From NCBI GenBank assembly GCA_964655915.1, contig CAZZNV010000004.1:18664-82663 (forward strand): a stretch of 64,000 nt of DNA. The letters are read 5' to 3'. Each line of letters begins with the position of its first letter. The stretch's first letter is position 1. Origin of the DNA: an uncultured Azospirillaceae bacterium. Its GTDB lineage: Bacteria > Pseudomonadota > Alphaproteobacteria > RF32 > CAG-239. The position numbers and the translations under genes are program-made. Positions 1-61,073 of the stretch are shown in pieces. A model generated the notes under the pieces. That model was given only the letters and a program-made list of their open reading frames with translations, was not told the origin of the DNA and did not search any database.

Positions 1-1355
1 CAGATATAAACCGGAATTCCCAGCGCAATGATAACGGCGGCCAACATCAAATATTTTAATCCGGCGGCGTAGATTAGCCACAGTGCGTAAAAAGCGCCGA
101 TAATTGCGGTGAAAAGTGCGTTTGAGCGGCGTGTTACCATGTTGTCGGGATATTCGCCATCTTCGCAGATTTTCCATAGGTAGGCGCAAGAGGTGAAATA
201 AGCCGGTAAAACCATGACACTGGTGATGCTCAACATGGTGTTCCATGCATTATTGGAGAAGTAGACCAATAATAAAAACAGCTGCATGGCTATGCTGGTT
301 ATCCATAAAGAAACAGATGGAGAGCCGTTTTTATTTTCTTTGGCGAATGCTTTAGGAAAAGTGTTGTTTTCTGCGGCGGCTTGTGGAATTTGAGCGGTAA
401 CCATTGTCCAAGCCAGCCAACTTGTTAAAACGGACACAAGCAGGCCGATGTTCATTAACCAAGCGCCCCAGCGTCCGACGACCATTTCAAGGATTCCTGC
501 GGTTGACGGATTAGCCACCTCGGCCAGTTGTTCTTGTGACATATAACCGAACGGTAACAAGGACAGAAGGACGTAGATAATCAGGCAGGAAATAAAGCCT
601 AAGAAAGTGGCTTTTCCGATAATTTCCGGACTTTTAGCACGATTAGACATGACAACGGCGCCTTCAATACCGATAAAAGACCAAAGGGTTACCAGCATGG
701 TGCTTTTTATTTGAGTGCTTAAGTCGCCGAGTTTGATTTTTGTGGCAACATTTTCACCCCAAAAATTGAAATCAAATTTTGAAAAATGAAAGACAAACAG
801 CATGATTAAGATAAACAAAATCAGTGGTACGATTTTAACGATTGTGCCGATAAGGTTGACGATGCTGGCTTGTTTTACGCCTTTTAAAACCAAATAATTA
901 AAACCCCAAATAATTATAGACCCGCCGATAATGGAGGCAAAGGTGTTGCCGCCAGCGAAGTATGGCGGAAAGAAGTAGTTGAGCGCGTCCATAGTTATGA
1001 CGGCATATCCGACGTTTCCGCACACCTGACAAAGCCAGTAAGACCACCCGATTGTGAAGCCGACATAGGGGCCAAATCCGGCTCGGCTGTAAGAATATAT
1101 TCCGGTTGTCAGATTGGGTTTGGCTCTGGATAAGATGGAAAAAGTGTTTGCAATAAAATAAATTCCTATTCCGGTGATTATCCAAGCCAGCAAAACAGCT
1201 CCGGCAGAAGCTCCGGCAGCCATGTTTTGCGGTAAGGAATAAATGCCGCCGCCAAGCATAGAGCTGACGACAATGGCGGCCAGTGCGAAAACACCCAAAC
1301 CATTCGGATTTTCCGAAGATTGCGTGTTTGTTATTTTCTGATTTTTATCAGCCAT
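1..1355 (-). CDS. APC-family amino-acid antiporter, arginine/agmatine (AaxC/AdiC-like). N-terminal 451 aa only; the 3' end runs past the window edge.
   Basis: Minus-strand frame is open from ATG (complement 1353-1355) to position 1; it is absent from the ORF track because it has no in-window stop. GAGGA RBS 9 nt upstream. Hand translation [52 protein letters not shown]... shows about 12 TM-like hydrophobic blocks and APC-like motifs. Sits immediately downstream of the AaxB-like decarboxylase, as in chlamydial aaxB-aaxC. Confidence 0.7.
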
Positions 1356-1436
1356 TATTTTTTTCCTCACGAAAAGTTATCATTATGTTTTTAAGGCGAA
1401 ATATGTGTATATTTCGCCTTAAGGGAAGGGAATAAA

Positions 1437-2021
1437 TTAGATTTGTGCCGGAGCGGCATGTTCAAAGTTCAAAAATCCCATAGCGGTTAAGCTATAACCG
1501 AATTGTTGGGTAATGTTGACATAGTTATGCCACATTTGAAATTCGGAGTGTTTTTCAACACCGCGGATTGAGAGCTCGTGGTTAAGTGACTTGTTCAGCC
1601 ACATCTCAGCGTGTCCCTTGGCTATATCGTCGTCAATTTGAGTGTCAAAAAACTCTACATATTCAGCCGCCCAACCACCGATGAGTTCGCCATTTTTGTC
1701 TTTACCCCAGCAAACACCTAAACCAGTGGCAATGGCTTTATGGTCATCACGGCTGGCTCCATGACCGGCCATGATAACTTCTAAAACGGCACCGTGTTTG
1801 AACTGATTGACTATTTTATCGTTTAAGGGAACAATTTTACCATATAATTCTTTGGGCAAAACAGACGTGTAGGGGACAACGTTGAAGTTTTCAATTCTGG
1901 CCTGCATCAGCGCGGAATCGTAACAGAATGTTTCAAACGGTTGAGGGGGAATGCCGTCATCAGCTTGTCCGGCACCGCCTGTGATGAATGCAAAAGTAGG
2001 ATAACGAACGCCTTCGGTCAT
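1437..2021 (-). CDS. aaxB: Pyruvoyl-dependent arginine decarboxylase, chlamydial AaxB type (194 aa)
   Basis: Track ORF 1437..2129 trimmed to the internal ATG at complement 2019-2021, which has a perfect AAGGAGA RBS 6 nt upstream. Sequence [18 protein letters not shown]...[10 protein letters not shown]...[14 protein letters not shown] matches my recollection of chlamydial AaxB, including the Thr52-Ser53 self-cleavage pair and the roughly 195-aa length. Confidence 0.65.
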
Positions 2022-2130
2022 TTTAAATCTCCTTAAAAAATTAAAATTACAGCCGTAGTGGTCAGCTTCGTTATATCTAATTGCTGTTGAGTTTTTTTCA
2101 ATGTTATTTGATGAAATATGTACGCGCATA

Positions 2131-2158
2131 AAAAAAGCTCCGGTTTGGAGCTTTTTTT
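2131..2158. terminator. Rho-independent terminator hairpin (AAAGCTCC-GGTTT-GGAGCTTT plus T-run)
   Basis: Perfect 8-bp stem followed by TTTTTTT; lies between the PH-domain gene and aaxB. Confidence 0.6.
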
Positions 2159-2160
2159 AA

Positions 2161-2619
2161 TCAGGAATGGATAACATCTTCCATTTGGCTTTTTATTTCT
2201 CGAGGATTTGCTATTATCGGGAAGTTAACTTTTGCAGATCCCGTTCCGGAGAAGTTAATATTGCCAAAATTAAAAACTCTGCCAATGACGGATTGGTCAA
2301 GTTCAACGGACTCTATTTTGGAAATCAGGAGCTCGTCTGTTTGTACGCTGATGATGCCATATTTGAACACCACACGTTTGTTGGTGATGACGAGTTCTGT
2401 TGTGAGAATGCGCAGAATACTGACAATCATGGTGACGATAAAAAACTCTGTCAGATAAAGAAAAAATCTGTCGGTTGCTTCTTCTCCGACATAGTAGCAG
2501 AGCAGCGTAAACAACGCACAGAATGTGAAGATGACCGTTCCGGCGTAGTTTATCCAATGAAGGTGTGCTCTTACTTTTATTTCTTCTCCTTCGGAGAGTG
2601 TTTTTTCCAGATAGCTCAT
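2161..2619 (-). CDS. Membrane protein with bacterial PH domain (bPH_2 / YdbS-YdbT-like)
   Basis: 152-aa ORF with two N-terminal TM helices and a C-terminal LVITNKRVVFKYGIISVQTDELLISKIESVEL segment typical of bPH_2/DUF304. Confidence 0.55.
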   Translation of the reverse strand: MSYLEKTLSEGEEIKVRAHLHWINYAGTVIFTFCALFTLLCYYVGEEATDRFFLYLTEFFIVTMIVSILRILTTELVITNKRVVFKYGIISVQTDELLISKIESVELDQSVIGRVFNFGNINFSGTGSAKVNFPIIANPREIKSQMEDVIHS

Positions 2620-2636
2620 GATATTATCCTTAAAGA

Positions 2637-2666
2637 AAGACCGGATTTTGTCCGGTCTTTTTTTTT
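2637..2666. terminator. Hairpin terminator downstream of pfk (GACCGGA-TTTTG-TCCGGTC)
   Basis: 7-bp GC-rich stem. Perfect T-run on the plus strand; UCUUUCUUU follows on the minus strand, which is the transcribed one. Confidence 0.5.
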
Positions 2667-3747
2667 ATTTCGTTTCGCCAATATACATTCCTAATTGGTG
2701 TGCCGCTTTAACATAATCACTCTCGGGGTTGAGAAGGGTTGTTCCGGCTTTGACGACATCAGCCAAATCAACATAATCGACATGACCGTTTTTCCAGATA
2801 ACCATTTTGTTGTTTTCTCCCTTATCCAGAAGCTCTACTGCTTTGGCGCCATAGACAGCCGCCAGCATGCGGTCAAAAGCAACAGGTGTTCCGGAGCGTT
2901 GAACATGTCCCAGTGTGGTAACGCGAATTTGAAATTCGTTATAACGAGAGCTGATTTCATTGCACAAATATTGACCGATACCGCCGTAAACGGCTTCTCC
3001 AACCATATTTTGTTTGTTAGACAAGTGAGAACCCATTTCAGTTTTGATCCCTTCTGAAACAACAATAACGGCGTGATTTCTACCGCTGGCTTTGATTTCT
3101 TTTAAGCGATTGATGACGCCGTCAATTGTGTAAGGAATTTCAGGAACCAAGCAAACATCGGCCGCTCCTGAGAGAGCTGAGTGCATAGCTAAGTGTCCGG
3201 CGTCGCGCCCCATAACCTCTAAAATCAGAGCGCGTCCATGAGAACGGGCTGTCCATTCCAAGCTGTCAATCGCGTTAGTGCATTGCTGAACGGCGGTTTC
3301 AAAACCTACTGAAAATTCCGTTATGGGTGTATCATTGTCGATTGTTTTAGGAATACCGACAATTTGAACATTGCTACCTTTGCAGAAGTTTGAAACGATA
3401 TTCATGCTTCCGTCACCGCCCACAACGACAATGGCGTCAAGTTCAAGGTCTTTAACACCTTGAGCGAAACGTTTAGACATCTCTTCCAAAGATTCCATTT
3501 TGACACCTTTGTTTAATGAGCCTAAATAAGAACCGCTCAATCTGGGCCATGGCGAATCGGAAAAATTATGTACGGTCAATACCTCAAAACTGTGAGGGGT
3601 GTTTGTAATGCCGTCTGTTCCGTTGTGGATACCATAAACTTCCCAACCTTTTCGGGAAGCAGCTTCTACAACTGAGCTGATGATAGCATTTAATCCGGCG
3701 CAATCTCCGCCGCTGGTTAAAATGCCAATTCTTTTCTTTTTGCTCAT
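2665..3747 (-). CDS. 6-phosphofructokinase (PFK-A family). Has GGDGS but Lys at the position before TIDND (PKTIDND), which suggests PPi-dependence.
   Basis: 360-aa ORF MSKKKRIGILTSGGDCAGLNA...VVVGGDGS...GIPKTIDND. The classic ATP/PPi discriminator residues are mixed (Gly104-type plus Lys124-type). Confidence 0.85.
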   Translation of the reverse strand: MSKKKRIGILTSGGDCAGLNAIISSVVEAASRKGWEVYGIHNGTDGITNTPHSFEVLTVHNFSDSPWPRLSGSYLGSLNKGVKMESLEEMSKRFAQGVKDLELDAIVVVGGDGSMNIVSNFCKGSNVQIVGIPKTIDNDTPITEFSVGFETAVQQCTNAIDSLEWTARSHGRALILEVMGRDAGHLAMHSALSGAADVCLVPEIPYTIDGVINRLKEIKASGRNHAVIVVSEGIKTEMGSHLSNKQNMVGEAVYGGIGQYLCNEISSRYNEFQIRVTTLGHVQRSGTPVAFDRMLAAVYGAKAVELLDKGENNKMVIWKNGHVDYVDLADVVKAGTTLLNPESDYVKAAHQLGMYIGETK

Positions 3748-3878
3748 TATTATGCTCCAATAGATTATTTAAGTTGATTTCTGATTTATTTTACTGTATA
3801 ATCTATTACAAATTTATTAAAATAGTTTCCAGTAAAAATTTTTGTTTAATAAGACTTTTTTAGAAAGGACCTTTACTT

Positions 3879-4091
3879 ATGTTTAATCAGGACCAAATGA
3901 GTAAGCTGCAGCATCAACTTTGTGAGTTAAAGCTGGAGGAACGTAGGGTTTGTTCTGATATAAGGCATTTAGTTTCCAAAAGTAAGACGATTGATTTTTA
4001 TCAGGCTAAGCAGCTGAACGTTTTGCGTACGGGTGTTAAGAGCAAGATTAAAAAGGTTGAGGCTAAGATTATGCCTAACATTATTGCCTGA
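3879..4091 (+). CDS. Small hypothetical protein (70 aa, Lys-rich, coiled-coil-like)
   Basis: AAAGGA RBS 8 nt upstream; followed by a strong terminator at 4116-4146. No family recognised. Confidence 0.4.
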   Translation: MFNQDQMSKLQHQLCELKLEERRVCSDIRHLVSKSKTIDFYQAKQLNVLRTGVKSKIKKVEAKIMPNIIA

Positions 4092-4218: not shown

Positions 4219-4269
4219 GGAAATTGGGTTATAACTAAATTATATTTCGAAATAACAATGAGGTTTCCT

Positions 4270-6372
4270 ATGAAAAAATTATTGCTTGCGGTCAGCGCGT
4301 TGGCTACCGTTTGTATCTCTGAGGCGAGAGCCGAGGCAGATATTTATCAGGAGAACAATTTAGCGTCATTAACGATTAATCTGCCGGACATTCAGGGGCT
4401 TAGAGTTGCCGGGGTTCAATGGATGCCGGACTACTTTGGCAGTAATTTGACGCGTTCATCTTCATCAAACTTGGAAAAAACAGCGACCTGTGCGCAATAT
4501 AAATTGTATTCGGCGTCAGATTGCCCTGAGGGCAGGGAACCTTCTGATTTGAGGGAACCGAAACCCGGTTTGAGGTGTTATGCCCGATGTGTTTGTAGCA
4601 AAACAAAATACCCTTACACAATTGCTAACTGTGTTTTGCCTAATTCTGTTGGTGGTGATTATTGTTCTGATGCAAACTACACTCTTTCTAATGAGGGTAA
4701 AGTCTTAGCTTTTGCCGATGTTGTGTCGGTTCAAAATTCGTTTGCCCTTAACAATCCTAGTCTTGCCAGTAGTGTTGCATGGGCAGAGAATAAGGTTGTG
4801 GTTTCAGGTGGAACATCAGGAAACGGTAGCTCGCCATCGAGTACGGGGAGCGTGTATGTATCTGGGTTTAGTCCGACGGGGATGTCAGCATCTGTTTCTC
4901 AGAATATGACCAATCAATATGCTGTAACTATGGTAGATAAAGTTGATGTCTCTGGTGGTTCCACAGGAAACGATGGTTCATCATCGGGGACAGGGGGTGT
5001 TTATGCTTCAGGACTTGCAAGTGGTGTAACTGTAGCAGGACTCTCTTCTAACGTTGCTCATCAGAATCTATATCTATCGTCGGCGGCTGTGACATCTGTG
5101 CAAACATCGGGAGTTCATCAGACTTTAGAAGAGAATAATGTTCCCAAATCAGCCGCGTATCGCTATACCAAATGTTCGCAAACGGTGTTTTGTAGTACGT
5201 ATGGTTACACAACAAGTTCTACGGTAACCAACAAAACTTGTACTAAGGTTGCGCCGGAATCTGTCGGCAACTTAGATAATTGTTATAACTGTATGTGTAA
5301 ATCTGAGTTTAAGTATTCTGAAGAAGAATATAACAGACTGAGACAAGTTGCAGGTTGTATTAATGGTCGCGTTTCTTGTGAAGACAGCAACGGTCTGCAT
5401 TATAAAATAGTCCTTAATGATGGTTTCTTAAATGATTGTGCTTTTGCTCCCTGTGCAGAAGGCTATACTCCGGGGTTGGCAAAAGTTACTTGTAGCAGCG
5501 ATGGAGATAAGTATGAATCTCAAGGTTACCACGGTCCGTTAATATGCGGAAAATGTACGCATCGTGCTTGTCCACAGGGATATTCCGTAGATACCGCGAC
5601 TTGTCCGAGAGGGTATCAGCTTGAAACAAACAGCACGTCAGGTGGTAAAGCTTGTGGAAAGTGTGTGGTGGCACTGTGTCCGACAGGATATGATGTAAAT
5701 ACGACTTCTTGTTCAAATGGATATAAGTTAGAAACAAACGGATATTCGGCAAGTAAGCCTTGCGGAAAATGTACCGCAACGACATGTCCGACGGGATATA
5801 ATGTAAATACGACCTCTTGTTCAAATGGGTATAAGTTTGAAACAAGCGGATATTCAGCAGGTAAGGCTTGCGGAAAATGTACCGCAACGACATGTCCGAC
5901 GGGATATGATGTAAATACGACCTCTTGTTCAAATGGATATAAGTTTGAAACAAGCGGATATTCAGCAGGTAAGGCTTGCGGAAAGTGTGTACAGATGAGT
6001 TGTTCTGATGGCGGGTATGTGGATAGTTGTCCTAGCGGTTCATCGGGCACCTCCATTGTCTTTGGTGGAAAGACATGCTATAAAGATTGTAAAGCAACTA
6101 GTGGTAGTTCAAATCAGGGAAAGACCGGTGATTGTGGAGGTTGCGTAGCCTCGGGTATGAAGATCATGACGGTTAATGGTCAGCGGAAATGTTGTCCGAT
6201 GAATTATACACCATCTAGCAATAGTACCAGCAATAATGGTTTGGGAAATTTGGGGTCCAATCCAGAAGGTACCAAAGGTTCGTTGCTTGGTTCGATTGGT
6301 GGCAGTACTATCTCGCCAGCAGACCCATGTTATCATTGTGAGGCCAGCACAGCTTTAGATACTTTATATTGA
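4270..6372 (+). CDS. Secreted cysteine-rich tandem-repeat protein (paralogue 1). Signal peptide, a Ser/Gly/Thr-rich middle, then 4 x 36-aa Cys repeats and a Cys-rich C-terminal domain.
   Basis: Track ORF 4258..6372 trimmed to ATG 4270 (GAGG 7 nt upstream). Starts MKKLLLAVSALATVCISEARA|EA. Repeats read CPTGYDVNTTSCSNGYKLETNGYSASKPCGKCTATT. The C-terminal CGKCVQMSCSDGGYVDSCPSG...CYKDCK is homologous to the 54601..56523 protein. Confidence 0.8.
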   Translation: MKKLLLAVSALATVCISEARAEADIYQENNLASLTINLPDIQGLRVAGVQWMPDYFGSNLTRSSSSNLEKTATCAQYKLYSASDCPEGREPSDLREPKPGLRCYARCVCSKTKYPYTIANCVLPNSVGGDYCSDANYTLSNEGKVLAFADVVSVQNSFALNNPSLASSVAWAENKVVVSGGTSGNGSSPSSTGSVYVSGFSPTGMSASVSQNMTNQYAVTMVDKVDVSGGSTGNDGSSSGTGGVYASGLASGVTVAGLSSNVAHQNLYLSSAAVTSVQTSGVHQTLEENNVPKSAAYRYTKCSQTVFCSTYGYTTSSTVTNKTCTKVAPESVGNLDNCYNCMCKSEFKYSEEEYNRLRQVAGCINGRVSCEDSNGLHYKIVLNDGFLNDCAFAPCAEGYTPGLAKVTCSSDGDKYESQGYHGPLICGKCTHRACPQGYSVDTATCPRGYQLETNSTSGGKACGKCVVALCPTGYDVNTTSCSNGYKLETNGYSASKPCGKCTATTCPTGYNVNTTSCSNGYKFETSGYSAGKACGKCTATTCPTGYDVNTTSCSNGYKFETSGYSAGKACGKCVQMSCSDGGYVDSCPSGSSGTSIVFGGKTCYKDCKATSGSSNQGKTGDCGGCVASGMKIMTVNGQRKCCPMNYTPSSNSTSNNGLGNLGSNPEGTKGSLLGSIGGSTISPADPCYHCEASTALDTLY
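5569..6000 (+). repeat. Intragenic tandem repeat: 108-bp period, about 4 copies (3 near-identical)
   Basis: TGTCCGAC(A/G)GGATAT(G/A)ATGTAAATACGAC recurs at 5677, 5785 and 5893, with a diverged copy at 5569. The period of 108 bp equals 36 aa. Confidence 0.85.
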
Positions 6373-26412: not shown

Positions 26413-26565
26413 TTTTTTCTCCTTATTGATTTCTTATGCATACATATACCATGTATGGGTATGTGTCAAGCCATATTTTTATTTGCTTGTTGATATGTTG
26501 TAGCCCGTGCTTGACAAAAAACTGTTCGCAATAGCATGATTTTATGGTTGGAACGGAGTAATTTT

Positions 26566-28266
26566 ATGGTCAAAATTAGCATAGTGATGCCGGTATATAA
26601 TACCGAAAAATACTTGTCAGAAACGTTAGATGCTGTTTTAGCACAAACTTTTGCAGATTTTGAGGTTATATGTGTTGATGACGGAAGCACAGACGGTAGT
26701 TTAAGGATTCTTGAAGAGTATCGAGATAAAGATGAACGCATAAAAATTGTCGTTCAGGATAATCAGGGTGTTGTGGCGGCAAGGAACAATGCTATTGCTT
26801 TAGCAAAAGGGGAATTTATTTATCCGTTGGATAGTGATGATGTGATAGCCCCGAATTGTCTGGAAAGGTTGTATGAAGTTATCACTACGACGAATAATCG
26901 AGTTGTGGCCAGTGAGGCTTGTTGTTTTGGTGAATGGAACGGTAGCTTCAGGCAACCAAAATTTACAAAATATGAAATGTATGGTTGGCACGAGCAATGT
27001 GTTGTATCTGCCTTATTTTATAAAGAAGATTTTGAGCGTTTTGGCGGGTACCGTCTTGCTTTTAACGGGTTTGGCGGTGATGACATGGATTATTGGCTGA
27101 ATTACATGGATAATGGTATGCCAATGTTTCGTGTTAAAGACTGTTTGTTTTTTTACAGGCAGAAGCTACAACAAGAAAGTGTATGGAAAAATTATAGTAA
27201 AAGCGAGTTTAAGAAAAGATTTGATTATAAAGAATCAATGTTACGCAAATATCATCCTAAAATGAAAAAGTGGGTGTTGTTGTGGAAACTGGCTAAAATG
27301 CAGTCAATCCTTTTTCAGATAAAGAGAACTGAAAATAAAATGAGCATTAGGCTGTTGAAGCTAACCCTTTTCAAAGTTAAACGTGTAAAAGGCAAGAAGC
27401 TTTATTTACTGCTAGGATTTATTCCTGTTTGGCTGAAAAAAGTTTCATCTCTTTTTTGTTATTATTTTGATTCGGTTTTAAATTTTGGAGATTTGTTAAA
27501 TCAGGATTTATTCAATTTTTTTGGAAAAAATTGTATTCGCTCTGGTATATATGATGCTGACGTCATGGCTATCGGTTCATTGCTACAAACGTTATTTCAA
27601 GAAAAAAAGCTGTCATTAATTAAACGTTTCAGGTTGCATTCTAAAAAAGCGCTTATTGTGTTGGGGAGTGGTTTTATATCTGATATGCCAGTCAATTCGT
27701 ATGTCTTAAGAAGGTTAAATGTGAAAGCTGTCAGAGGGTATCATTCATTAAATAAATTGAAGCAATTTAGTAATGTTCATATAGCGTCTGATGTTGCTAT
27801 TGGGGACCCCGGTTTGTTATCTAAATATATTGTTGATGTTTCCAAAGTTGAAAAGAAATATGATTTGGGTATTATTCCTCATTATGTAGATAAAGATAAC
27901 CCATTGTTGAGAAAAATACAGGTTAAGAATTCTATTGTTATTGATGTTCAGCAAAAACCGGAAATGTTCTTACGTCAAGTTGCCGAATGTAGACATATAA
28001 TATCTAGTGCTATGCATGGGCTTGTTGCCGCAGATTCATTGGGAATACCGAATATTAGAATGGTTTTATCGGATAAGATTATTGGCGGTGATTATAAATA
28101 TAACGACTATTATTCTGCATTTGGTTTGAGCAAACATGCAGTTATTGATTTATCGAAGCGTGATTTTTCTGAAAAAGATATACCGGATATTGTCGGGAAT
28201 TACAAAATTAAGATACAACAGGTGGAACATATCTGTAGAGATTTGATAAAAGTCTTTCCACATTAA
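26566..28266 (+). CDS. Bifunctional GT2 glycosyltransferase (N-terminal) / polysaccharide pyruvyl transferase (CsaB/WcaK-like, C-terminal)
   Basis: Trimmed to MVKISIVMPVYNTEKYLSETLDAVLAQTFADFEVICVDDGSTDGS (GGAG RBS). C-terminal half has ...NFGDLLNQDLF... and ...SSAMHGLVAADSLGIPNI..., the pyruvyl-transferase motifs. Confidence 0.65.
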   Translation: MVKISIVMPVYNTEKYLSETLDAVLAQTFADFEVICVDDGSTDGSLRILEEYRDKDERIKIVVQDNQGVVAARNNAIALAKGEFIYPLDSDDVIAPNCLERLYEVITTTNNRVVASEACCFGEWNGSFRQPKFTKYEMYGWHEQCVVSALFYKEDFERFGGYRLAFNGFGGDDMDYWLNYMDNGMPMFRVKDCLFFYRQKLQQESVWKNYSKSEFKKRFDYKESMLRKYHPKMKKWVLLWKLAKMQSILFQIKRTENKMSIRLLKLTLFKVKRVKGKKLYLLLGFIPVWLKKVSSLFCYYFDSVLNFGDLLNQDLFNFFGKNCIRSGIYDADVMAIGSLLQTLFQEKKLSLIKRFRLHSKKALIVLGSGFISDMPVNSYVLRRLNVKAVRGYHSLNKLKQFSNVHIASDVAIGDPGLLSKYIVDVSKVEKKYDLGIIPHYVDKDNPLLRKIQVKNSIVIDVQQKPEMFLRQVAECRHIISSAMHGLVAADSLGIPNIRMVLSDKIIGGDYKYNDYYSAFGLSKHAVIDLSKRDFSEKDIPDIVGNYKIKIQQVEHICRDLIKVFPH

Positions 28267-28275
28267 GGTAAAAAA

Positions 28276-29214
28276 ATGAGCATAAAAGTTAGCATCATTG
28301 TTCCAGTCTATAATGTAGAGCCATATTTGAGTAAGTGTATGGAGTCATTGTGCAATCAATCTCTACAAGATATAGAAATTATTGCAATAAACGATTGTTC
28401 ACAAGATGATAGTTTGAAAATATTAAAAAGATATGCAAAACACGACAAAAGAATCAAAATAATAAATAAAAAGAAAAATGTTGGTACGGCTAACGCGCGC
28501 AATTCAGGTTGCTCTATAGCGACAGGTGAGTACATTGCTTTTATTGATGGTGACGACTATGTTGATAAAGATTTTTATGAAAAATTGTATAAACTAGCAG
28601 TAAAAAATAATGCAGATGTAGCAAAAGGTGTAACAAAAACATTTAACGTTGATGGTTCAGTTGTTATTGCAAAGGATAATGATGATATTGTGAAACAGGG
28701 AAAGTTTGCTTTTATGGGGCATCTTTTGACTGCAATATATAAAAATAATTTAATAAAAGAAAATAATATAAGGTTTTATATAGATTTTTTCTGTTTTCAG
28801 ATACAGGTTGTTTATTTTGCAAATAAAATCGTCTGCTTAAATGATACTTTTTATAACTATGTACGCCACATCGACAGTTGCGATAGCGATATTTTCACCC
28901 TAGAGAAATGGCAAAGATTGAATTTAGGGCATGGAAATTTTATGTATGATTGGATTATGAACCATAGCACGCCTTCAGATATTAAAATATTATATCTGGA
29001 TCGCATAAAGAGTTTATATTTTTATGGGTTCAATAAGTTGGAATTAATAGATGTTCCTTTGGCATGTCGTATACTAGCATCCACTATGAAGAAAAACTAT
29101 GATTGCGGTTTTAATATAGCCGATGATAAATCGTTTATACGCAAATTGTATAGGAAAAATAAAAATACAACGTTGTTTACATATATCATTGATGTTTTAA
29201 AAGGTAGAATATAA
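28276..29214 (+). CDS. Family-2 glycosyltransferase
   Basis: MSIKVSIIVPVYNVEPYLSKCMESL...AINDCSQDDS...FIDGDD. Very AT-rich. Confidence 0.8.
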   Translation: MSIKVSIIVPVYNVEPYLSKCMESLCNQSLQDIEIIAINDCSQDDSLKILKRYAKHDKRIKIINKKKNVGTANARNSGCSIATGEYIAFIDGDDYVDKDFYEKLYKLAVKNNADVAKGVTKTFNVDGSVVIAKDNDDIVKQGKFAFMGHLLTAIYKNNLIKENNIRFYIDFFCFQIQVVYFANKIVCLNDTFYNYVRHIDSCDSDIFTLEKWQRLNLGHGNFMYDWIMNHSTPSDIKILYLDRIKSLYFYGFNKLELIDVPLACRILASTMKKNYDCGFNIADDKSFIRKLYRKNKNTTLFTYIIDVLKGRI

Positions 29215-29215
29215 G

Positions 29216-30766
29216 ATGTTTAAGATAAAAAATACTGATAAAATATTAATTATTGCACCACATCCAGACGATGAGGCCCTTGGTTGTGGGGGATTTATGT
29301 TAAAATACGCAAAAAATATAGATAGTTTTTGTTTTTTATCTAGCGGTATATCTCCTGATGCAAAAGAGAAATCTGATATTCGTATTTTTGAATGGAATAC
29401 GGTACAAAAAGCTATTGGGTGTAACAATCTTGGGATTATAGAACTTTATGGTGACAGACCTTTGTTGCCAAGAATTATAGATAATATGCAAAAATATTTA
29501 AGGATTTTGAATACAAAAAAATATGATTATATTTTTATGCCTCACTTAAACGATAATCATCCTGAACATCAATATATTTCTAGAACAATAATGAGACAAA
29601 TTTTGTTACATAATGGCTATAAAAAAAAGCTTAAAATTTGTTTTTATGAAGTGTGGTCACTACTAAGTAGTCCTGATATTTATTTTGAAATAGATGCGGA
29701 TAAAAAAAGTAAGTTGTTGTCTTTATATAAGACACAATGGAATATTTGCAATCTTCCTAAGAAAATTATTGGTTTAAATTGTTATCGAGGTGTTGATGCT
29801 GGTTTTAAAGAATATGCAGAGGCATTTGAGGTAATCGGTATAGATGGTTATTTAACAAGTACAAAACCGATTGAAGAAATACTAGGGGGGGAAGAGAAAA
29901 AACTTGTATTATCAAATCGTTTATATCCAAACTTCATAAGTAACAGATTTGATTTACTATACGATGATTACGAATTATACGATTTAGGTACAGGTGTTGT
30001 TCCTGTAAAAATTGATGGTAAAGTGGCAAAGCTGGGAATGACACTGCAGATTTATTCTGATGAAACTTTACATAAATTTTATAATTTATTATTTGCAAAA
30101 CACCCATCTCTTGAAACAATAATAATAAAACATTCTTTATCGTCCTATGGAATAACTAGCAAAAATAATCAATTTTATCATTATCCGTACTGGCATATAG
30201 AACTTCCCGTAAGTGTAGAAGATTTTAGCAATAAATTATCAGCTCGTGTTCGTTATAATACAAAATGGTATCCGAAGAAAATTAGTGAGGATATTGGTGA
30301 TTTAAAAATTAGTCGAATTTCTGCTCAAGATACTACCGAAAGTATGGGTAAACAATTTTTTGCATGGAAAAAAGAAAGTCATAATTGTGATTATAATATG
30401 TCAACTAAAGAATACTTAAAAACATACGGCGTAACGGAAACCTATTTAATGTATATTGGTTCTGATTTGCTCGCAATTGGATTTATTTGTACAACAGGTG
30501 AAAATGTATATTTTGAGCAATTTGCTTATTCTCAAGAAGCAAAATATAAAAAGTATTCATTAGGGATGGTGCTTTATTATCACATAATATGTGATTTAAT
30601 AAGGTTAAAAAAGAAAAATTTCTATTTATCTGGTGGTTATTTAGATTATAAAAAAAGATATAATGGTGTATGTCAGTATACATATTCAGGGACAATTTCC
30701 AGAAAGAATAAACTTGAGCATAAACATCACTCATTTTGGTGGCATTTGAGGCATATGAAGTTTTAG
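29216..30766 (+). CDS. Fusion protein: N-terminal LmbE/PIG-L-family deacetylase plus C-terminal GNAT/FemAB-like acyltransferase fold
   Basis: N-terminus ILIIAPHPDDEALGCGGFML...HLNDNHPEH is the LmbE zinc-site motif. The C-terminal 250 aa resemble the BioF2/CelD-type GNAT fold. Very AT-rich. Confidence 0.55.
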   Translation: MFKIKNTDKILIIAPHPDDEALGCGGFMLKYAKNIDSFCFLSSGISPDAKEKSDIRIFEWNTVQKAIGCNNLGIIELYGDRPLLPRIIDNMQKYLRILNTKKYDYIFMPHLNDNHPEHQYISRTIMRQILLHNGYKKKLKICFYEVWSLLSSPDIYFEIDADKKSKLLSLYKTQWNICNLPKKIIGLNCYRGVDAGFKEYAEAFEVIGIDGYLTSTKPIEEILGGEEKKLVLSNRLYPNFISNRFDLLYDDYELYDLGTGVVPVKIDGKVAKLGMTLQIYSDETLHKFYNLLFAKHPSLETIIIKHSLSSYGITSKNNQFYHYPYWHIELPVSVEDFSNKLSARVRYNTKWYPKKISEDIGDLKISRISAQDTTESMGKQFFAWKKESHNCDYNMSTKEYLKTYGVTETYLMYIGSDLLAIGFICTTGENVYFEQFAYSQEAKYKKYSLGMVLYYHIICDLIRLKKKNFYLSGGYLDYKKRYNGVCQYTYSGTISRKNKLEHKHHSFWWHLRHMKF

Positions 30767-56683: not shown

Positions 56684-59023
56684 TTAGTTGTTCGCTAAGC
56701 GTTCCAAAACCTGTTTCTTTAAGGTTACATTGTCGGCTTTACCCGTGGCGAAGACCGGCAGACTCTCCTGATAGAGGATAATCCTCGGTAAGTAGAGTTC
56801 CGACATTCCGTTAGCACGAATATAGTTGTGAAGACAGTCTTGTGTTACCTCTTTATTATTGGTAACAAGGACAATCTGTTCGCCTTTGCTTTCGTGCGGA
56901 ATAGCAACAATGCCGTAAGAATATTCGGCACCGCTTTTTTCATAAGCCATACGAACCATCTCGTCAACAGCGTTCAGAGAAACCATTTCGCCACCGATTT
57001 TTGCAAAGCGTTTAATGCGGTCTTTAATGTAAACAAAGCCGATTTCATCAATTTCAACAACATCTCCGGTATGATACCAGTTGTCTTTCAGAGGTACCAA
57101 AACCCCCGGATTGTCAGGCATAATATATCCCATCATGATATTGGGGCCTTTAACAACAAGCTCACCGCCTTTTTCAATGCCAGGAACCGGTTCAATTTTA
57201 TGCTGGATTTTGGGTAAAAGCTTTCCGATGGAGCCGAAACGATTGAAAATTCGATTGTTTGCGGTTAGAACCGGAGAACATTCCGTTGATCCATAAGCTT
57301 CCATAACACGAATTCCCATGCGTTCTGCCCACATATTACGGGTATCCGGTTTAATGGCTTCTGCGCCGCCAAACATAAAACGAATGTTGTGGAAGTCTAT
57401 CGGGTGAGCAATTTTTCCATAGCCACGGAAAAACGTGTCTGTACCAAACATAATGGTAGCGCCGATTTCATAAACAATTTCAGCGATGACACGATAGTGC
57501 AGGGGAGACGGGTATAAAAACAGCTTTCCCCCTTCAAACAACGGGAATAATGTGCCCACGGTCAAACCAAAGCTATGGAACATCGGCAAAGCATTAAACA
57601 CGGTGTCTGTTATGTTGATTGTCTCAATCGTGGACAATTGTTTGATGTTAGAGATAATGTTTGCATGGCTTAAAACAACCGCTTTCGGGGCACCTTCGGA
57701 ACCGGAAGTGAACAAGATAACAGCCTTTTTGTCACCGCCTTCCTTGTGAGGGATACGCTTGATTTTGTAGCGCAAAAAAGCGTTGATTTTGTGCCAAAGG
57801 CTGATTTTGTGGCGCAAGTCTTCCAAATAGTGAATTTCAAGGCCGCATTTTTCCATTTCTTCCACCACGTTTTCCATTTTGGCATTGCGAATGAACAAAC
57901 GCGAAGTGATAACTTTTTTGACGACGGCGGTTCTGCACATGGAAACCATATTTTTGGCGCCGACCGAAAAGTTAAGCATAACAGGAATGCGGTCATACGC
58001 CGACAAACCGAAAAACGTGCAAAGAGTTGCTATGGAGTTCGGCAAAAACAACGCGACGGGTTCTTCCGGTTGGGTTAATTTTTTGAAGTATTTGCCCAAA
58101 ACGAAAGATTTTATGATGATGTCTTTATAGGAATTAGGCTGGCGGTTAATATCCTCAACAAAAGCCGGACGATGGAAAAAACCTCTTTTGGAGTGGACTT
58201 TTGCCGTTTTCATCAATTGGGCAAAAAGAGAAATGTTGTCATTGTATGATGCCTCAAAACTCATTTCCCGCATAATCATGTAAACTTCATTGCTGATGTG
58301 GTCACGCTGGCGGCGTAACTCATCTTTCAATTTGAATTTTACGGGTTTTTTGACCGTGATACGGATTTTGGGGAGCGGGCGGTGCGGTAATTTTCCTTTA
58401 GTTTTGGAAAAATATCCGTACTGCGGGCCGCTTATCCAGACCGGAATAATCGGGGCTTGAGATTTATCCGCCAACAAGCCGGGGGCTTCGTAAATTTTCA
58501 TCAGGCCGCCGTTTTCGGTGATACGTCCTTCCGCAAAGATGACACAACGGCGTCCGCTGTCAATTTTGGCGATTAATTCTTTCAAATCTCCGGGTTCAAT
58601 CGGATTAAACGGCATAATGTCTGCTGTTTTCATTAAAAAGCGTATCCATTTGCTGCGATACAAATGTCCGTTCAGAACAAATACGGGGTTTCCCGGAAGA
58701 AACGCAAACAATAAAATAGGGTCAAGGTAGGAAACATGGTTTGATACATAGACGGCCTTGGCCGGAAGTTTTTTTTCATCAAAGGCTATATTACAACGAG
58801 TTTTGAAACAAGTGAAAAAAGCCCTGAGGCAAAATCTGACAAAGTCTCTCAAGATAAATCTCCGAGTAGTTACAACATAATTTAAATTTTTACTCCAAAA
58901 ATTAATGCTTTGTAAAGATTTAAGGTGAGGGAAGCCGGATAGTCTTCTGTAACAATCTGTAATATTTTGAAAAACATAGAATTTTATGCCATTTTGCAAT
59001 GGGGATAAAATCGCGCTTGTCAA
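56684..59023 (-). CDS. aas: Bifunctional 2-acylglycerophosphoethanolamine acyltransferase / acyl-ACP synthetase (Aas): PlsC-type acyltransferase plus AMP-binding domain
   Basis: N-terminal HVSYLDP (H(x)4D acyltransferase box); C-terminal TSGSEGAPKAVVLSH adenylation motif. The only in-frame start is TTG 59023. Confidence 0.75.
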   Translation of the reverse strand: MTSAILSPLQNGIKFYVFQNITDCYRRLSGFPHLKSLQSINFWSKNLNYVVTTRRFILRDFVRFCLRAFFTCFKTRCNIAFDEKKLPAKAVYVSNHVSYLDPILLFAFLPGNPVFVLNGHLYRSKWIRFLMKTADIMPFNPIEPGDLKELIAKIDSGRRCVIFAEGRITENGGLMKIYEAPGLLADKSQAPIIPVWISGPQYGYFSKTKGKLPHRPLPKIRITVKKPVKFKLKDELRRQRDHISNEVYMIMREMSFEASYNDNISLFAQLMKTAKVHSKRGFFHRPAFVEDINRQPNSYKDIIIKSFVLGKYFKKLTQPEEPVALFLPNSIATLCTFFGLSAYDRIPVMLNFSVGAKNMVSMCRTAVVKKVITSRLFIRNAKMENVVEEMEKCGLEIHYLEDLRHKISLWHKINAFLRYKIKRIPHKEGGDKKAVILFTSGSEGAPKAVVLSHANIISNIKQLSTIETINITDTVFNALPMFHSFGLTVGTLFPLFEGGKLFLYPSPLHYRVIAEIVYEIGATIMFGTDTFFRGYGKIAHPIDFHNIRFMFGGAEAIKPDTRNMWAERMGIRVMEAYGSTECSPVLTANNRIFNRFGSIGKLLPKIQHKIEPVPGIEKGGELVVKGPNIMMGYIMPDNPGVLVPLKDNWYHTGDVVEIDEIGFVYIKDRIKRFAKIGGEMVSLNAVDEMVRMAYEKSGAEYSYGIVAIPHESKGEQIVLVTNNKEVTQDCLHNYIRANGMSELYLPRIILYQESLPVFATGKADNVTLKKQVLERLANN

Positions 59024-59077
59024 TCTATTGGTTATTTGTTATTAGTCAATAAGTATTAGTGGTTGAGGATAGGTCAG

Positions 59078-59713
59078 GTGAAAAAAGATTCTAAAAACGA
59101 GCTTTTGTACAGCGCTTTTTGCGAGTTTGCCAAAAATGGCTTTTTTGGGGCGACAACGCGTGATATTGCCAGCCGCGCCGGTGCCAATATCTCCTCAATA
59201 TTATATTATTTCGGCGGTAAAAAAGGGATTTATACCGCGGCGCTGGAAAGTATTGTCGACGCCGTTAATAAGGAAACCGCTGCGCTGGTAACGGAATATG
59301 ACCGAGTGATGAAAGATAAAGACAGCGTCGAGGCGAGGGATGTTCTGAAAAAATTTACCAAGGCGTTTCTTTATTTGAGCTGCGGTGATACGCTTTCTGA
59401 GGATATGAAGGCCGTTTTTTTGAGTGAATATTTTAAGCCGACCGAAGATTTCAGTATTCTTTATGAAGGGCTGATTTTGCCTTTTTATCAAAAAATGGCG
59501 AATTTGTTGGAATTGTCCAGCGGCGGCAAGATCTCAATGAAGGATGCTTATTTATATATGTTTCCGTTTTTTGCACAGATGTTTGTGTTTAGCTCCAGAC
59601 AGGAAAGTATTTGCAAATTTATGGAATGGAAAAGCTATGATGAGCCCGAAAAGCAAAAGCTTTTGGACTATATGTATCATCAGGTTGATTTTCTGATTGA
59701 CGGGCGAAAATAG
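59078..59713 (+). CDS. TetR/AcrR-family transcriptional regulator, divergent from aas
   Basis: GTG start (GAGGATAGG RBS). MKKDSKNELLYSAFCEFAKNGFFGATTRDIASRAGANISSILYYF is the TetR HTH. Confidence 0.75.
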   Translation: MKKDSKNELLYSAFCEFAKNGFFGATTRDIASRAGANISSILYYFGGKKGIYTAALESIVDAVNKETAALVTEYDRVMKDKDSVEARDVLKKFTKAFLYLSCGDTLSEDMKAVFLSEYFKPTEDFSILYEGLILPFYQKMANLLELSSGGKISMKDAYLYMFPFFAQMFVFSSRQESICKFMEWKSYDEPEKQKLLDYMYHQVDFLIDGRK

Positions 59714-59807
59714 CTTTTGGGAAAAAATAAATCAATCAATTGATTGACTTTTTGTTTTTTTTAGGTACTGTGGTTATGTTCGTATTAACTACAGAAGAGA
59801 CTTTTTT

Positions 59808-61073
59808 ATGAAAAAAATTCTTACATTGACTGCGTTAGGCACAATTTTAATGGCTTCTAACGCTATGGCTGCCGGTTTTCACTTGCGTGAACAATCAGCC
59901 GCTGCTCAGGGTAACGCTTTTGCCGGTGCTACTGCCGGTGCTGAAAACGGTTCGTATGCTTATTATAACGTTGCGGGTTTGACTCGTCAGAAGGGAACAC
60001 AGGTTAACGCTGGTGTGACTTATATTGCACCACGTGCAGAGGCTTCTGAAGTTAAAGATGCCGCAGGAACGTCCCAACTTGATGTTGATAATATAGTACA
60101 TGCCGCTTGGGCGCCAAACGGTACTGTTTCTTACCAGTTAGATGATAAAACAACATTCGGTATGGCTTTGAATGTTCCGTTCGGAATGATTACAAAATAT
60201 GATTCCCGTTGGGCCGGTTCTGACCACGGAAACCTTTCTAAGGTGACAGCAATTGATATGACACCGATGGTGGCTTACAAAGTTGATGATAAGTTGTCTG
60301 TCGGTGCCGGCTTACCGATTCAATATGTTAAAGCTCGTCTGACGAACAGTTCTTCAGCCGCTGATGCAGATGATGTTAAGTTGGAAGGTGATACGGTTGA
60401 TGTGGGTTATCAGTTGGGCGCAATGTATGAATTTAACGATAAAGCCCGTGTCGGTATGGGATACCGTAGCGAGATTCGCCACAAGCTGAAAGGTGAAATC
60501 GAGGCTCCGTCTAAGCAAGGACATCCTGTTTTTGGTCCTTTGTTAAACCAAGATATTCATGCTAAGTTAAATACACCAGCAATGTTTTCATTGGGTGGCT
60601 TTTATAAGCTGAACGATAAATGGGAACTTATGGCAGAATATCAACGCGTTTTCTGGAGTTCGTTTGAATCTTTGGACATTTATGGTACGGGAGCTAAGCA
60701 TCCTCTAACGGGTGATTTGATTTCTTCCACTAAAGAAAATTGGCGCGATACCAATTTTTATGCCGTTGGTGCAAGTTATCAGCTTGACCCTCAGTGGAAA
60801 GCGCGTTTCGGTGTTGCTTTTGACGAAGCGGCCGTAACCATTTCTGACAGAACACCCCGTATTCCGGATTCTGATCGTATTTGGTTTTCCGGTGGTTTGA
60901 ACTATCAATATAGTGAGAATTTGAGCTTTGATGTGGCCTATACTTATATCAAGGCCAAAAAAGCGACGGTTGATACTTCTTTGACGGGAAACAAAGACAA
61001 CGGTAAGAATTTCTCAGCCGAGTATTCAAATTCTGTTAAACTTTGGGGCTTGTCGCTCAATTACAAGTTCTAA
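59808..61073 (+). CDS. fadL: Outer-membrane long-chain fatty-acid transporter, FadL/OmpP1/TodX family
   Basis: Signal peptide plus AAGFHLREQSAAAQGNAFAGATAG (the FadL N-terminal hatch motif); C-terminal beta-barrel ending ...LSLNYKF. Confidence 0.8.
   Translation: MKKILTLTALGTILMASNAMAAGFHLREQSAAAQGNAFAGATAGAENGSYAYYNVAGLTRQKGTQVNAGVTYIAPRAEASEVKDAAGTSQLDVDNIVHAAWAPNGTVSYQLDDKTTFGMALNVPFGMITKYDSRWAGSDHGNLSKVTAIDMTPMVAYKVDDKLSVGAGLPIQYVKARLTNSSSAADADDVKLEGDTVDVGYQLGAMYEFNDKARVGMGYRSEIRHKLKGEIEAPSKQGHPVFGPLLNQDIHAKLNTPAMFSLGGFYKLNDKWELMAEYQRVFWSSFESLDIYGTGAKHPLTGDLISSTKENWRDTNFYAVGASYQLDPQWKARFGVAFDEAAVTISDRTPRIPDSDRIWFSGGLNYQYSENLSFDVAYTYIKAKKATVDTSLTGNKDNGKNFSAEYSNSVKLWGLSLNYKF

Follow-up and report, generated by a model that had tools for sequence, protein, structure and literature searches.

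A decarboxylase gene and a permease gene, located on the minus strand at the left end of the 64-kb stretch of DNA analysed here (contig CAZZNV010000004.1; hereafter the window), very probably form an AaxB/AaxC module of the chlamydial kind for arginine:agmatine exchange, which comes without the AaxA porin and is carried by a gut alphaproteobacterium. An earlier reading made from the sequence alone had described a 194-amino-acid (aa) open reading frame (ORF) with a Thr52-Ser53 context, followed on the same strand by an APC permease running off the left edge, and both genes were confirmed by translation, the start site, PF01862 and TIGR00905. The sequence-only reading had also assigned the pair to the chlamydial AaxB/AaxC type and not to the archaeal PdaD type, which agrees with identities of 71% and 60% to the Chlamydia felis proteins. 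NCBI already annotates the pair in generic terms, as a pyruvoyl-dependent arginine decarboxylase and an amino acid permease. The features concerned are as follows.

Positions 2021..1437, minus strand: aaxB-like gene for a 194-aa pyruvoyl-dependent arginine decarboxylase proenzyme (from the translation, PF01862 and the identity to C. felis AaxB).
Positions 2034..2029, minus strand: Shine-Dalgarno sequence AAGGAG, 7 nt before the ATG at 2021 (read from the sequence).
Positions 1355..1, minus strand: aaxC-like gene for an APC-superfamily basic amino acid/amine antiporter, 5' 451 of 496 codons (from the translation, TIGR00905 and the identity to AaxC).

The ORF listing gives a longer frame for the decarboxylase (2129..1437, 230 aa); the start at 2021, which yields 194 aa, was chosen because the ribosome-binding site and the N-termini of all homologs agree on it. 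The protein matched the Pfam family PvlArgDC (PF01862) with 83.7 bits at a cut-off of 22.7. Chlamydial AaxB proteins were retrieved from the databases with a probe sequence, and only the database proteins that it returned serve as evidence. These were proteins named AaxB from C. felis (P0414) and Chlamydia sp. 17-3921, and a cluster look-up added the AaxB of C. suis, C. pecorum, C. muridarum and C. trachomatis. The window decarboxylase is close in size to the chlamydial enzymes (~195 aa) and shows 71% identity and 85% positives to C. felis AaxB over the full length. By residue count Thr52-Ser53 lies inside [10 protein letters not shown], and it aligns column for column with the C. felis, C. 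suis-cluster and other AaxB proteins; by analogy with them, self-cleavage is predicted between Thr52 and Ser53, with Ser53 giving rise to the pyruvoyl group of the large subunit. Gly115, the replacement of which inactivates the AaxB of serovar D (PMC2720952), is also aligned between the window decarboxylase and chlamydial AaxB.

Asp35, Asn47, Ser53 and Glu120 were invariant in an alignment of 14 relatives. When the profile of these relatives was aligned to the Methanocaldococcus jannaschii PvlArgDC (1n2m, 2qqd), the four residues corresponded to D35, N47, S53 and E109, which are reported to be catalytic (Tolbert et al. 2003 and later mutant structures); the same profile reached the M. jannaschii enzyme weakly (E = 0.018). 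A phmmer search of PDB sequences with the decarboxylase itself gave no match at E<=1, and the sole significant Foldseek PDB matches of its AlphaFold2 (AF2) model were again M. jannaschii PvlArgDC (E ~1e-6, probability 1.00, TM 0.5-0.65, 18-20% identity). The window enzyme thus shares with the archaeal PdaD (M. jannaschii MJ0316) the fold, the Pfam family and the equivalents of Asp35, Asn47, Ser53 and Glu109, whereas PdaD is only ~165 aa long and ~18-20% identical, has Ser52-Ser53, serves a biosynthetic role and has no linked antiporter. The archaeal PdaD equivalog models remained below their cut-offs for the decarboxylase (TIGR00286, 33.4 versus 107 bits; NF009064, 30.6 versus 207 bits). In neighbour-joining trees with bootstrap, computed with our own code, the AaxB clade including the window protein was split from divergent PvlArgDC relatives with 100% bootstrap. 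The BLASTP comparison proposed earlier could have pointed to the Ser-Ser PdaD clade or to histidine decarboxylases, and the best kinship lies with neither.

A search of 50%-identity representatives with the decarboxylase gave 160 matches, many of which are fragments. Some divergent PvlArgDC homologs (P0253, P0254, P0257, P0267 and P0275 of 226-257 aa; P0256, P0258 and P0265 of 387-479 aa) are 35-53% identical to the window decarboxylase, and they carry hydrophobic, signal-peptide-like N-terminal extensions or form the C-terminal part of much longer proteins, which suggests exported or fused pyruvoyl decarboxylases.

The permease leaves the window at its left edge, and an identical full-length public protein (P0121) has 496 aa. 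On the short contig with P0121 (L001), the last 45 permease codons lie past the left edge, and then comes atpC in the opposite orientation. TIGR00905 (basic amino acid/polyamine antiporter) was the sole NCBIfam model passed by the permease, with 543-572 bits at a cut-off of 409. The models of ArcD (TIGR03810, 494-522 bits, cut-off 591), the histidine-histamine antiporter HdcP (NF040512, 440-476 bits, cut-off 725) and the AdiC equivalog (NF007929, 161-168 bits, cut-off 574) scored below their cut-offs. C. felis AaxC, which reaches 507 bits with the ArcD model, likewise falls under the ArcD, AdiC and HdcP cut-offs, and the NCBIfam score profiles of the two permeases are nearly alike. Since the curated models alone do not settle the chlamydial type, real chlamydial proteins were compared. 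The permease showed 60% identity and 77% positives to C. felis AaxC over 487 residues (60-64% identity across comparisons), as compared to 44-46% identity to ArcD from true arcD-arcA-arcB-arcC operons of Azospirillum and Bacillus. As to the check proposed earlier, the permease came out on the side of AaxC and not of ArcD or AdiC. The closest solved structure is AdiC (128 bits, E = 5e-36). ArcD belongs to the same TIGR00905 subfamily, and ArcD proteins were used as outgroup to root the tree.

Aligned to AdiC (5j4i), the permease keeps the residues Y74, Y93, N101, W202, I205, E208, W293 and Y365. In AdiC these residues have roles in arginine binding and gating, and Trp293 and Asn101 take part in binding the guanidinium group. 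Based on its sequence, the permease is predicted to exchange arginine for agmatine. Among 367 plasmid-borne relatives of the permease the best was 50% identical to it. This relative is encoded on the Photobacterium damselae plasmid NZ_CP063048.1 (L094, 1795-4657), directly upstream of a gene annotated as 'phosphatidylserine decarboxylase family protein', and the two plasmid genes may be another decarboxylase/antiporter pair.

The pair is a vertically inherited, lineage-wide trait of a gut alphaproteobacterial clade under strong purifying selection. When one genome was scanned for each species, 581 of them contained a relative of the decarboxylase, and the loci examined were the best 80, all of which belong to the window's clade. 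These 80 genomes are metagenome-assembled genomes (MAGs) named 'Alphaproteobacteria bacterium' from the gut of human, mouse, deer, rabbit and chicken, and they include Proteobacteria bacterium CAG:495 and Ca. Scatocola (Rhodospirillales per NCBI). The permease was directly downstream of the decarboxylase on the same strand in all 80 loci. Across these species the identity was 85-97% for the decarboxylase, 75-88% for the permease and 71-92% for the neighbouring 6-phosphofructokinase gene (pfk), and the decarboxylase identity tracked that of pfk (Spearman 0.83, n=25, p = 3e-7). The ratio of nonsynonymous to synonymous substitution rates (dN/dS) was ~0.02 for the decarboxylase and ~0.06 for the permease, both being rough figures because dS is saturated. 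The GC content of the pair is 0.45 and that of third codon positions (GC3) 0.45-0.50, inside the scatter of the other window genes (0.41 ± 0.05 and 0.40 ± 0.06, respectively). Vertical inheritance follows from the invariant synteny, the co-divergence with pfk, the low dN/dS and the ordinary GC, and synteny and co-divergence together make the pair older than the clade's radiation. The host is a flagellated gut alphaproteobacterium: FlgF, FlgG, FlgA, FlgH and FlaF were confirmed at 6.5-10.5 kb, and the relatives are gut Alphaproteobacteria MAGs, in line with the affiliation that had been read from the flaF and flgFGAH genes. A literature search on RF32 alphaproteobacteria gave no match.

The surroundings of the 80 related loci were covered to ±6 kb. 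A tblastn search with C. felis AaxA and four AaxA-like porins (E<=1e-2) found no AaxA in the 64-kb window or in the loci L001-L081. The sequence-only reading had proposed to look for aaxA beyond the left edge, and what lies there is the end of the permease followed by atpC. Moreover, aaxA in Chlamydia is located upstream of aaxB, which corresponds to the right-hand side here, and this side is occupied by a gene for a bPH-domain membrane protein and by pfk, with no AaxA homolog. In the C. felis locus (L083, CF0286) the gene order is aaxA (OprB family, NF051888 804 bits), aaxB, aaxC; the chlamydial AaxABC systems (C. pneumoniae CPn1033-1031 and the C. felis locus) thus share with the window a decarboxylase followed by an antiporter on the same strand, and differ from it by the OprB-family AaxA that adjoins the pair.

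The three-gene aaxABC layout extends beyond Chlamydiae. An OprB-family gene adjoins aaxB-aaxC in Ca. Avelusimicrobium faecicola of the gut Elusimicrobiota (L089, 3739-4938) and in a group with a 201-aa AaxB (L090, 3687-4982), and also in a second clade of alphaproteobacterial MAGs (L091, 3482-4768, minus strand), where it is transcribed divergently from aaxB. The sole NCBIfam match of these three porins was the chlamydial AaxA model NF051888 (247-348 bits, below the cut-off of 600), and a further AaxA-like porin at L084 4406-5965 reached 471 bits, also below 600. The AaxA-like porins are 34-43% identical to C. felis AaxA. The gene clusters of Elusimicrobiota, of the second alphaproteobacterial clade and of the 201-aa group resemble that of the window in their gut origin, in the order of decarboxylase and antiporter and in sequence (77-78% for AaxB, 62-67% for AaxC), but they have the AaxA-like porin beside aaxB. 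The split between the window clade on one side and Chlamydiae, Elusimicrobiota, the 201-aa group and the second alphaproteobacterial clade on the other obtained 100% bootstrap for AaxB, for AaxC and for their concatenation, and every sampled member of the second group has a linked porin. By these sequences the window clade groups as a porin-less sister branch of the aaxABC group, as far as a linked porin in the window and in the ±6-kb loci is concerned.

The AaxB identity across phyla is 72-80%, which is irreconcilable with the species phylogeny, so that an ancient horizontal transfer between phyla is likely. When the trees were rooted with divergent PvlArgDC or with ArcD, Chlamydiae were sister to the gut groups and not nested among them, with a support of 53-73% and long chlamydial branches; a firm claim on the direction of transfer was dropped because of this weak support and of possible long-branch attraction. 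With Chlamydiae as sister group, the window clade would have lost the porin secondarily. The proposal that the pair was horizontally acquired therefore holds in part: a recent import is contradicted by the synteny in 80/80 loci, the Spearman coefficient of 0.83 with pfk and the ordinary GC, and an ancient inter-phylum transfer is likely from the 72-80% identities.

The proposed mechanism is modelled on the characterised proteins of Chlamydia pneumoniae and C. trachomatis (PMC2720952). In AaxABC of Chlamydia, the decarboxylase cleaves itself at Ser53, arginine is exchanged for agmatine, the pH optimum is near 3.4 and AaxA merely stimulates the system (PMC2720952). A version without the porin is plausible since AaxA only stimulates the chlamydial system. 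In the window bacterium, the 194-aa proenzyme would cleave itself between Thr52 and Ser53 and thereby convert Ser53 into the pyruvoyl cofactor of the large subunit, and L-arginine would be brought in by the antiporter. The decarboxylase would then turn arginine into agmatine and CO2 with the use of one cytoplasmic proton, and the antiporter would swap agmatine out for the next arginine. The net effect would be proton removal and charge export, which would protect the cell in acid, as during gastric passage or in acidic gut niches, and might also contribute to the proton-motive force. From the kinship with the chlamydial enzyme we infer arginine decarboxylase activity and an acid optimum for the window protein, and by the same analogy arginine-in/agmatine-out proton consumption for acid tolerance is the most likely function of the module, which possibly generates proton-motive force as well. 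Of the earlier suggestion of an acid-exposed or intracellular lifestyle, acid exposure is plausible because all close relatives come from the animal gut. An intracellular life is unsupported; the same system is found in gut Elusimicrobiota and other gut MAGs. The predicted scheme of arginine uptake, proton-consuming decarboxylation and agmatine export is also that of the E. coli AdiA/AdiC system (AR3), and Y93, N101, W202, E208 and W293 of AdiC are among the residues kept in the window permease. AdiA, unlike the window enzyme, is a large pyridoxal-phosphate-dependent enzyme that is not homologous to PvlArgDC, and the window has no AdiY-type regulator.

Several observations weigh against an acid-tolerance module of the chlamydial type. 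The acid optimum and the arginine/agmatine specificity would be extrapolated from proteins that are 71% and 60% identical. Where chlamydial AaxB has Trp128, the window decarboxylase has Gln, and the position varies in gut homologs. In the permease, besides the changes of AdiC S26 to Gly and S357 to Thr, C97 is replaced by Gln and M104 by Tyr, and the GSG motif in the first transmembrane segment of AdiC reads GGG. The AF2 model of the decarboxylase, built from a shallow alignment, had a pLDDT of 67 and was poor at residues 29-79, which include the cleavage site. The trees are neighbour-joining only. A consensus scan upstream of aaxB found no sigma-70-like promoter.

As an alternative, the decarboxylase could mainly feed agmatine into polyamine (putrescine/spermidine) synthesis, with the permease acting as a plain arginine importer. 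The archaeal PF01862 enzymes are indeed biosynthetic, as is well established. Gut-bacterial arginine decarboxylases have been treated as serving both polyamine synthesis and acid resistance (PMC12484125). But the decarboxylase is paired with an exchanger-type APC antiporter in 80/80 loci, it is 71% identical to an AaxB with an acid optimum and far from the biosynthetic PdaD equivalogs, and in the gene tables examined there was no agmatinase or agmatine deiminase gene beside the pair. We regard a mainly biosynthetic role as improbable.

It is very unlikely that the pair handles another substrate, such as histidine/histamine or another basic amino acid. The HdcP model NF040512 does give 440-476 bits, and aaxC-annotated antiporters adjoin pyruvoyl histidine decarboxylases in some gut bacteria (PMC8465708); this score is far under the cut-off of 725, however, and the enzyme belongs to the PvlArgDC and not to the HdcA family and is 71% identical to a proven arginine decarboxylase (PMC2720952). 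In addition, the permease has kept Trp293 and Asn101 of AdiC.

A recent horizontal import that would mark an intracellular, Chlamydia-like lifestyle has very little probability as well. The 72-80% identity between phyla demands a horizontal transfer at some point, and the Chlamydiaceae were inferred to have gained aaxABC by transfer (PMC2720952). The synteny in 80/80 loci and the co-divergence with pfk speak against a recent event, as does the GC and GC3 of the pair relative to the window, and the flagella, pfk and polysaccharide genes of the window are typical of a free-living gut bacterium, while its Aas protein fits proteobacterial models. Finally, an ArcD arginine/ornithine antiporter of the arginine deiminase pathway with an incidental decarboxylase neighbour deserves hardly any credence. 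In its favour, TIGR03810 is the second-best NCBIfam model and JGI labels some homologs 'arginine:ornithine antiporter/lysine permease'. Against it, the score stays under the cut-off of 591 as it does for chlamydial AaxC, the identity to ArcD of real arcDABC operons is well below that to AaxC, neither the window nor L001 has arcA, arcB or arcC next to the gene, and the link to the decarboxylase is invariant in 80 loci.

Besides the two genes of the exchange module, two RNA-level elements were found at this end of the window.

Positions 2158..2130, minus strand: terminator-like hairpin A7-GCTCC-AAACC-GGAGC-T7, directly 3' of the stop codon of the bPH gene (read from the sequence).
Positions 1422..1391, minus strand: intercistronic stem-loop with a 14-bp stem and a 4-nt loop, in the 81-nt spacer between the decarboxylase and permease genes (from folding versus shuffles).

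The decarboxylase gene is preceded by the bPH-domain gene and this in turn by pfk. Because the hairpin at 2158..2130 closes the bPH and pfk genes, the decarboxylase/antiporter pair looks like a transcription unit of its own. Its outer end falls on position 2158, where the piece described in the sequence-only reading also ends. The consensus scan skipped this hairpin because the A and T runs lengthen its stem. The bPH gene was considered as a part of the module and rejected, as none of the 80 loci has it next to the pair at E<=1e-10. The spacer between aaxB and aaxC is ~9 nt in C. felis as compared to 81 nt with a stable hairpin in the window; the minimum free energy of the 81-nt spacer was -19.8 kcal/mol, with z = -5.1 against shuffles. 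A hairpin of at least 8 pairs was found in 69 of 77 related spacers (at least 25 nt long), the sequences of which are unrelated, and 42 of these 69 hairpins had a T-rich tail, like terminators or attenuators. An intercistronic intrinsic terminator in the window was rejected, although these 42 relatives have the T-rich tail, because the window copy is without a U tract. The stem-loop probably tunes how much membrane transporter is made relative to the abundant soluble enzyme.

Some further features of the window were noted. The module at 56684-61073 consists of an Aas-type fusion of acyltransferase and AMP-binding parts (779 aa), a divergent TetR/CecR-type regulator and FadL. It had been taken as pointing to an intracellular life, and this did not hold: general proteobacterial bifunctional Aas and E. 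coli-type FadL models match best, the best NCBIfam matches of the Aas-type protein being two proteobacterial models for acyl-ACP-phospholipid O-acyltransferase, with 840 and 615 bits and thus under the cut-off in either case. Judged by these matches, it appears as an ordinary lysophospholipid/fatty-acid recycling module and not as a chlamydial signature. A low-GC island at 26536-30766 (GC 0.29-0.34 and GC3 0.20-0.31, versus ~0.41 and 0.40 elsewhere) contains two genes for glycosyltransferases of family 2 and one for a protein that matches deacetylases weakly, and it has the look of a cassette for surface polysaccharide or glycosylation that was gained horizontally. Flanked by pfk and the flagellar rod genes, positions 4258-6372 of the plus strand encode a 704-aa Cys-rich protein with a signal-like N-terminus and tandem ~35-aa repeats (CPTGY[DN]VNTTSCSNGYK[LF]ETxGYSAxKxCGKC), which had no Pfam or NCBIfam match. 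The GC skew of the plus strand is strongly and persistently positive from 4000 to 47000 (0.18-0.36 per 2-kb window), where most genes are on the plus strand; the left end, where the skew is close to zero, has aaxBC, bPH and pfk on the minus strand.

The ancestor of the Chlamydiaceae was inferred to have acquired aaxABC horizontally after the split from Parachlamydiaceae, and genes annotated as aaxB/aaxC have been recorded in gut Bacteroidota and other phyla (PMC2720952 and PMC8465708, respectively). Tentatively, and as a scenario that we do not favour over its opposite, chlamydial AAX may be one branch of an aaxABC cassette that circulates among gut bacteria, the ancestor of Chlamydiaceae having drawn from this pool and the window clade having lost the linked porin. 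The pool would comprise Elusimicrobiota, two alphaproteobacterial clades and at least one further group.

For the host genome, the result is mostly a gain in annotation, namely a predicted arginine-dependent acid tolerance with agmatine excretion in a gut lineage about which little is known; it is a speculative thought that agmatine from such gut bacteria could matter to the animal host. The AAX system is usually treated as a peculiarity of Chlamydiaceae, and it is puzzling inside a near-neutral inclusion. Near-identical aaxBC pairs are core and strongly selected genes of a large uncultured clade of gut Alphaproteobacteria, which identifies candidate relatives of the chlamydial genes, and the acid exposure of the gut is a setting in which the acid optimum of AAX makes sense. 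If the cassette did come from the gut, this origin would explain why an intracellular pathogen has a decarboxylase with a pH optimum of 3.4.

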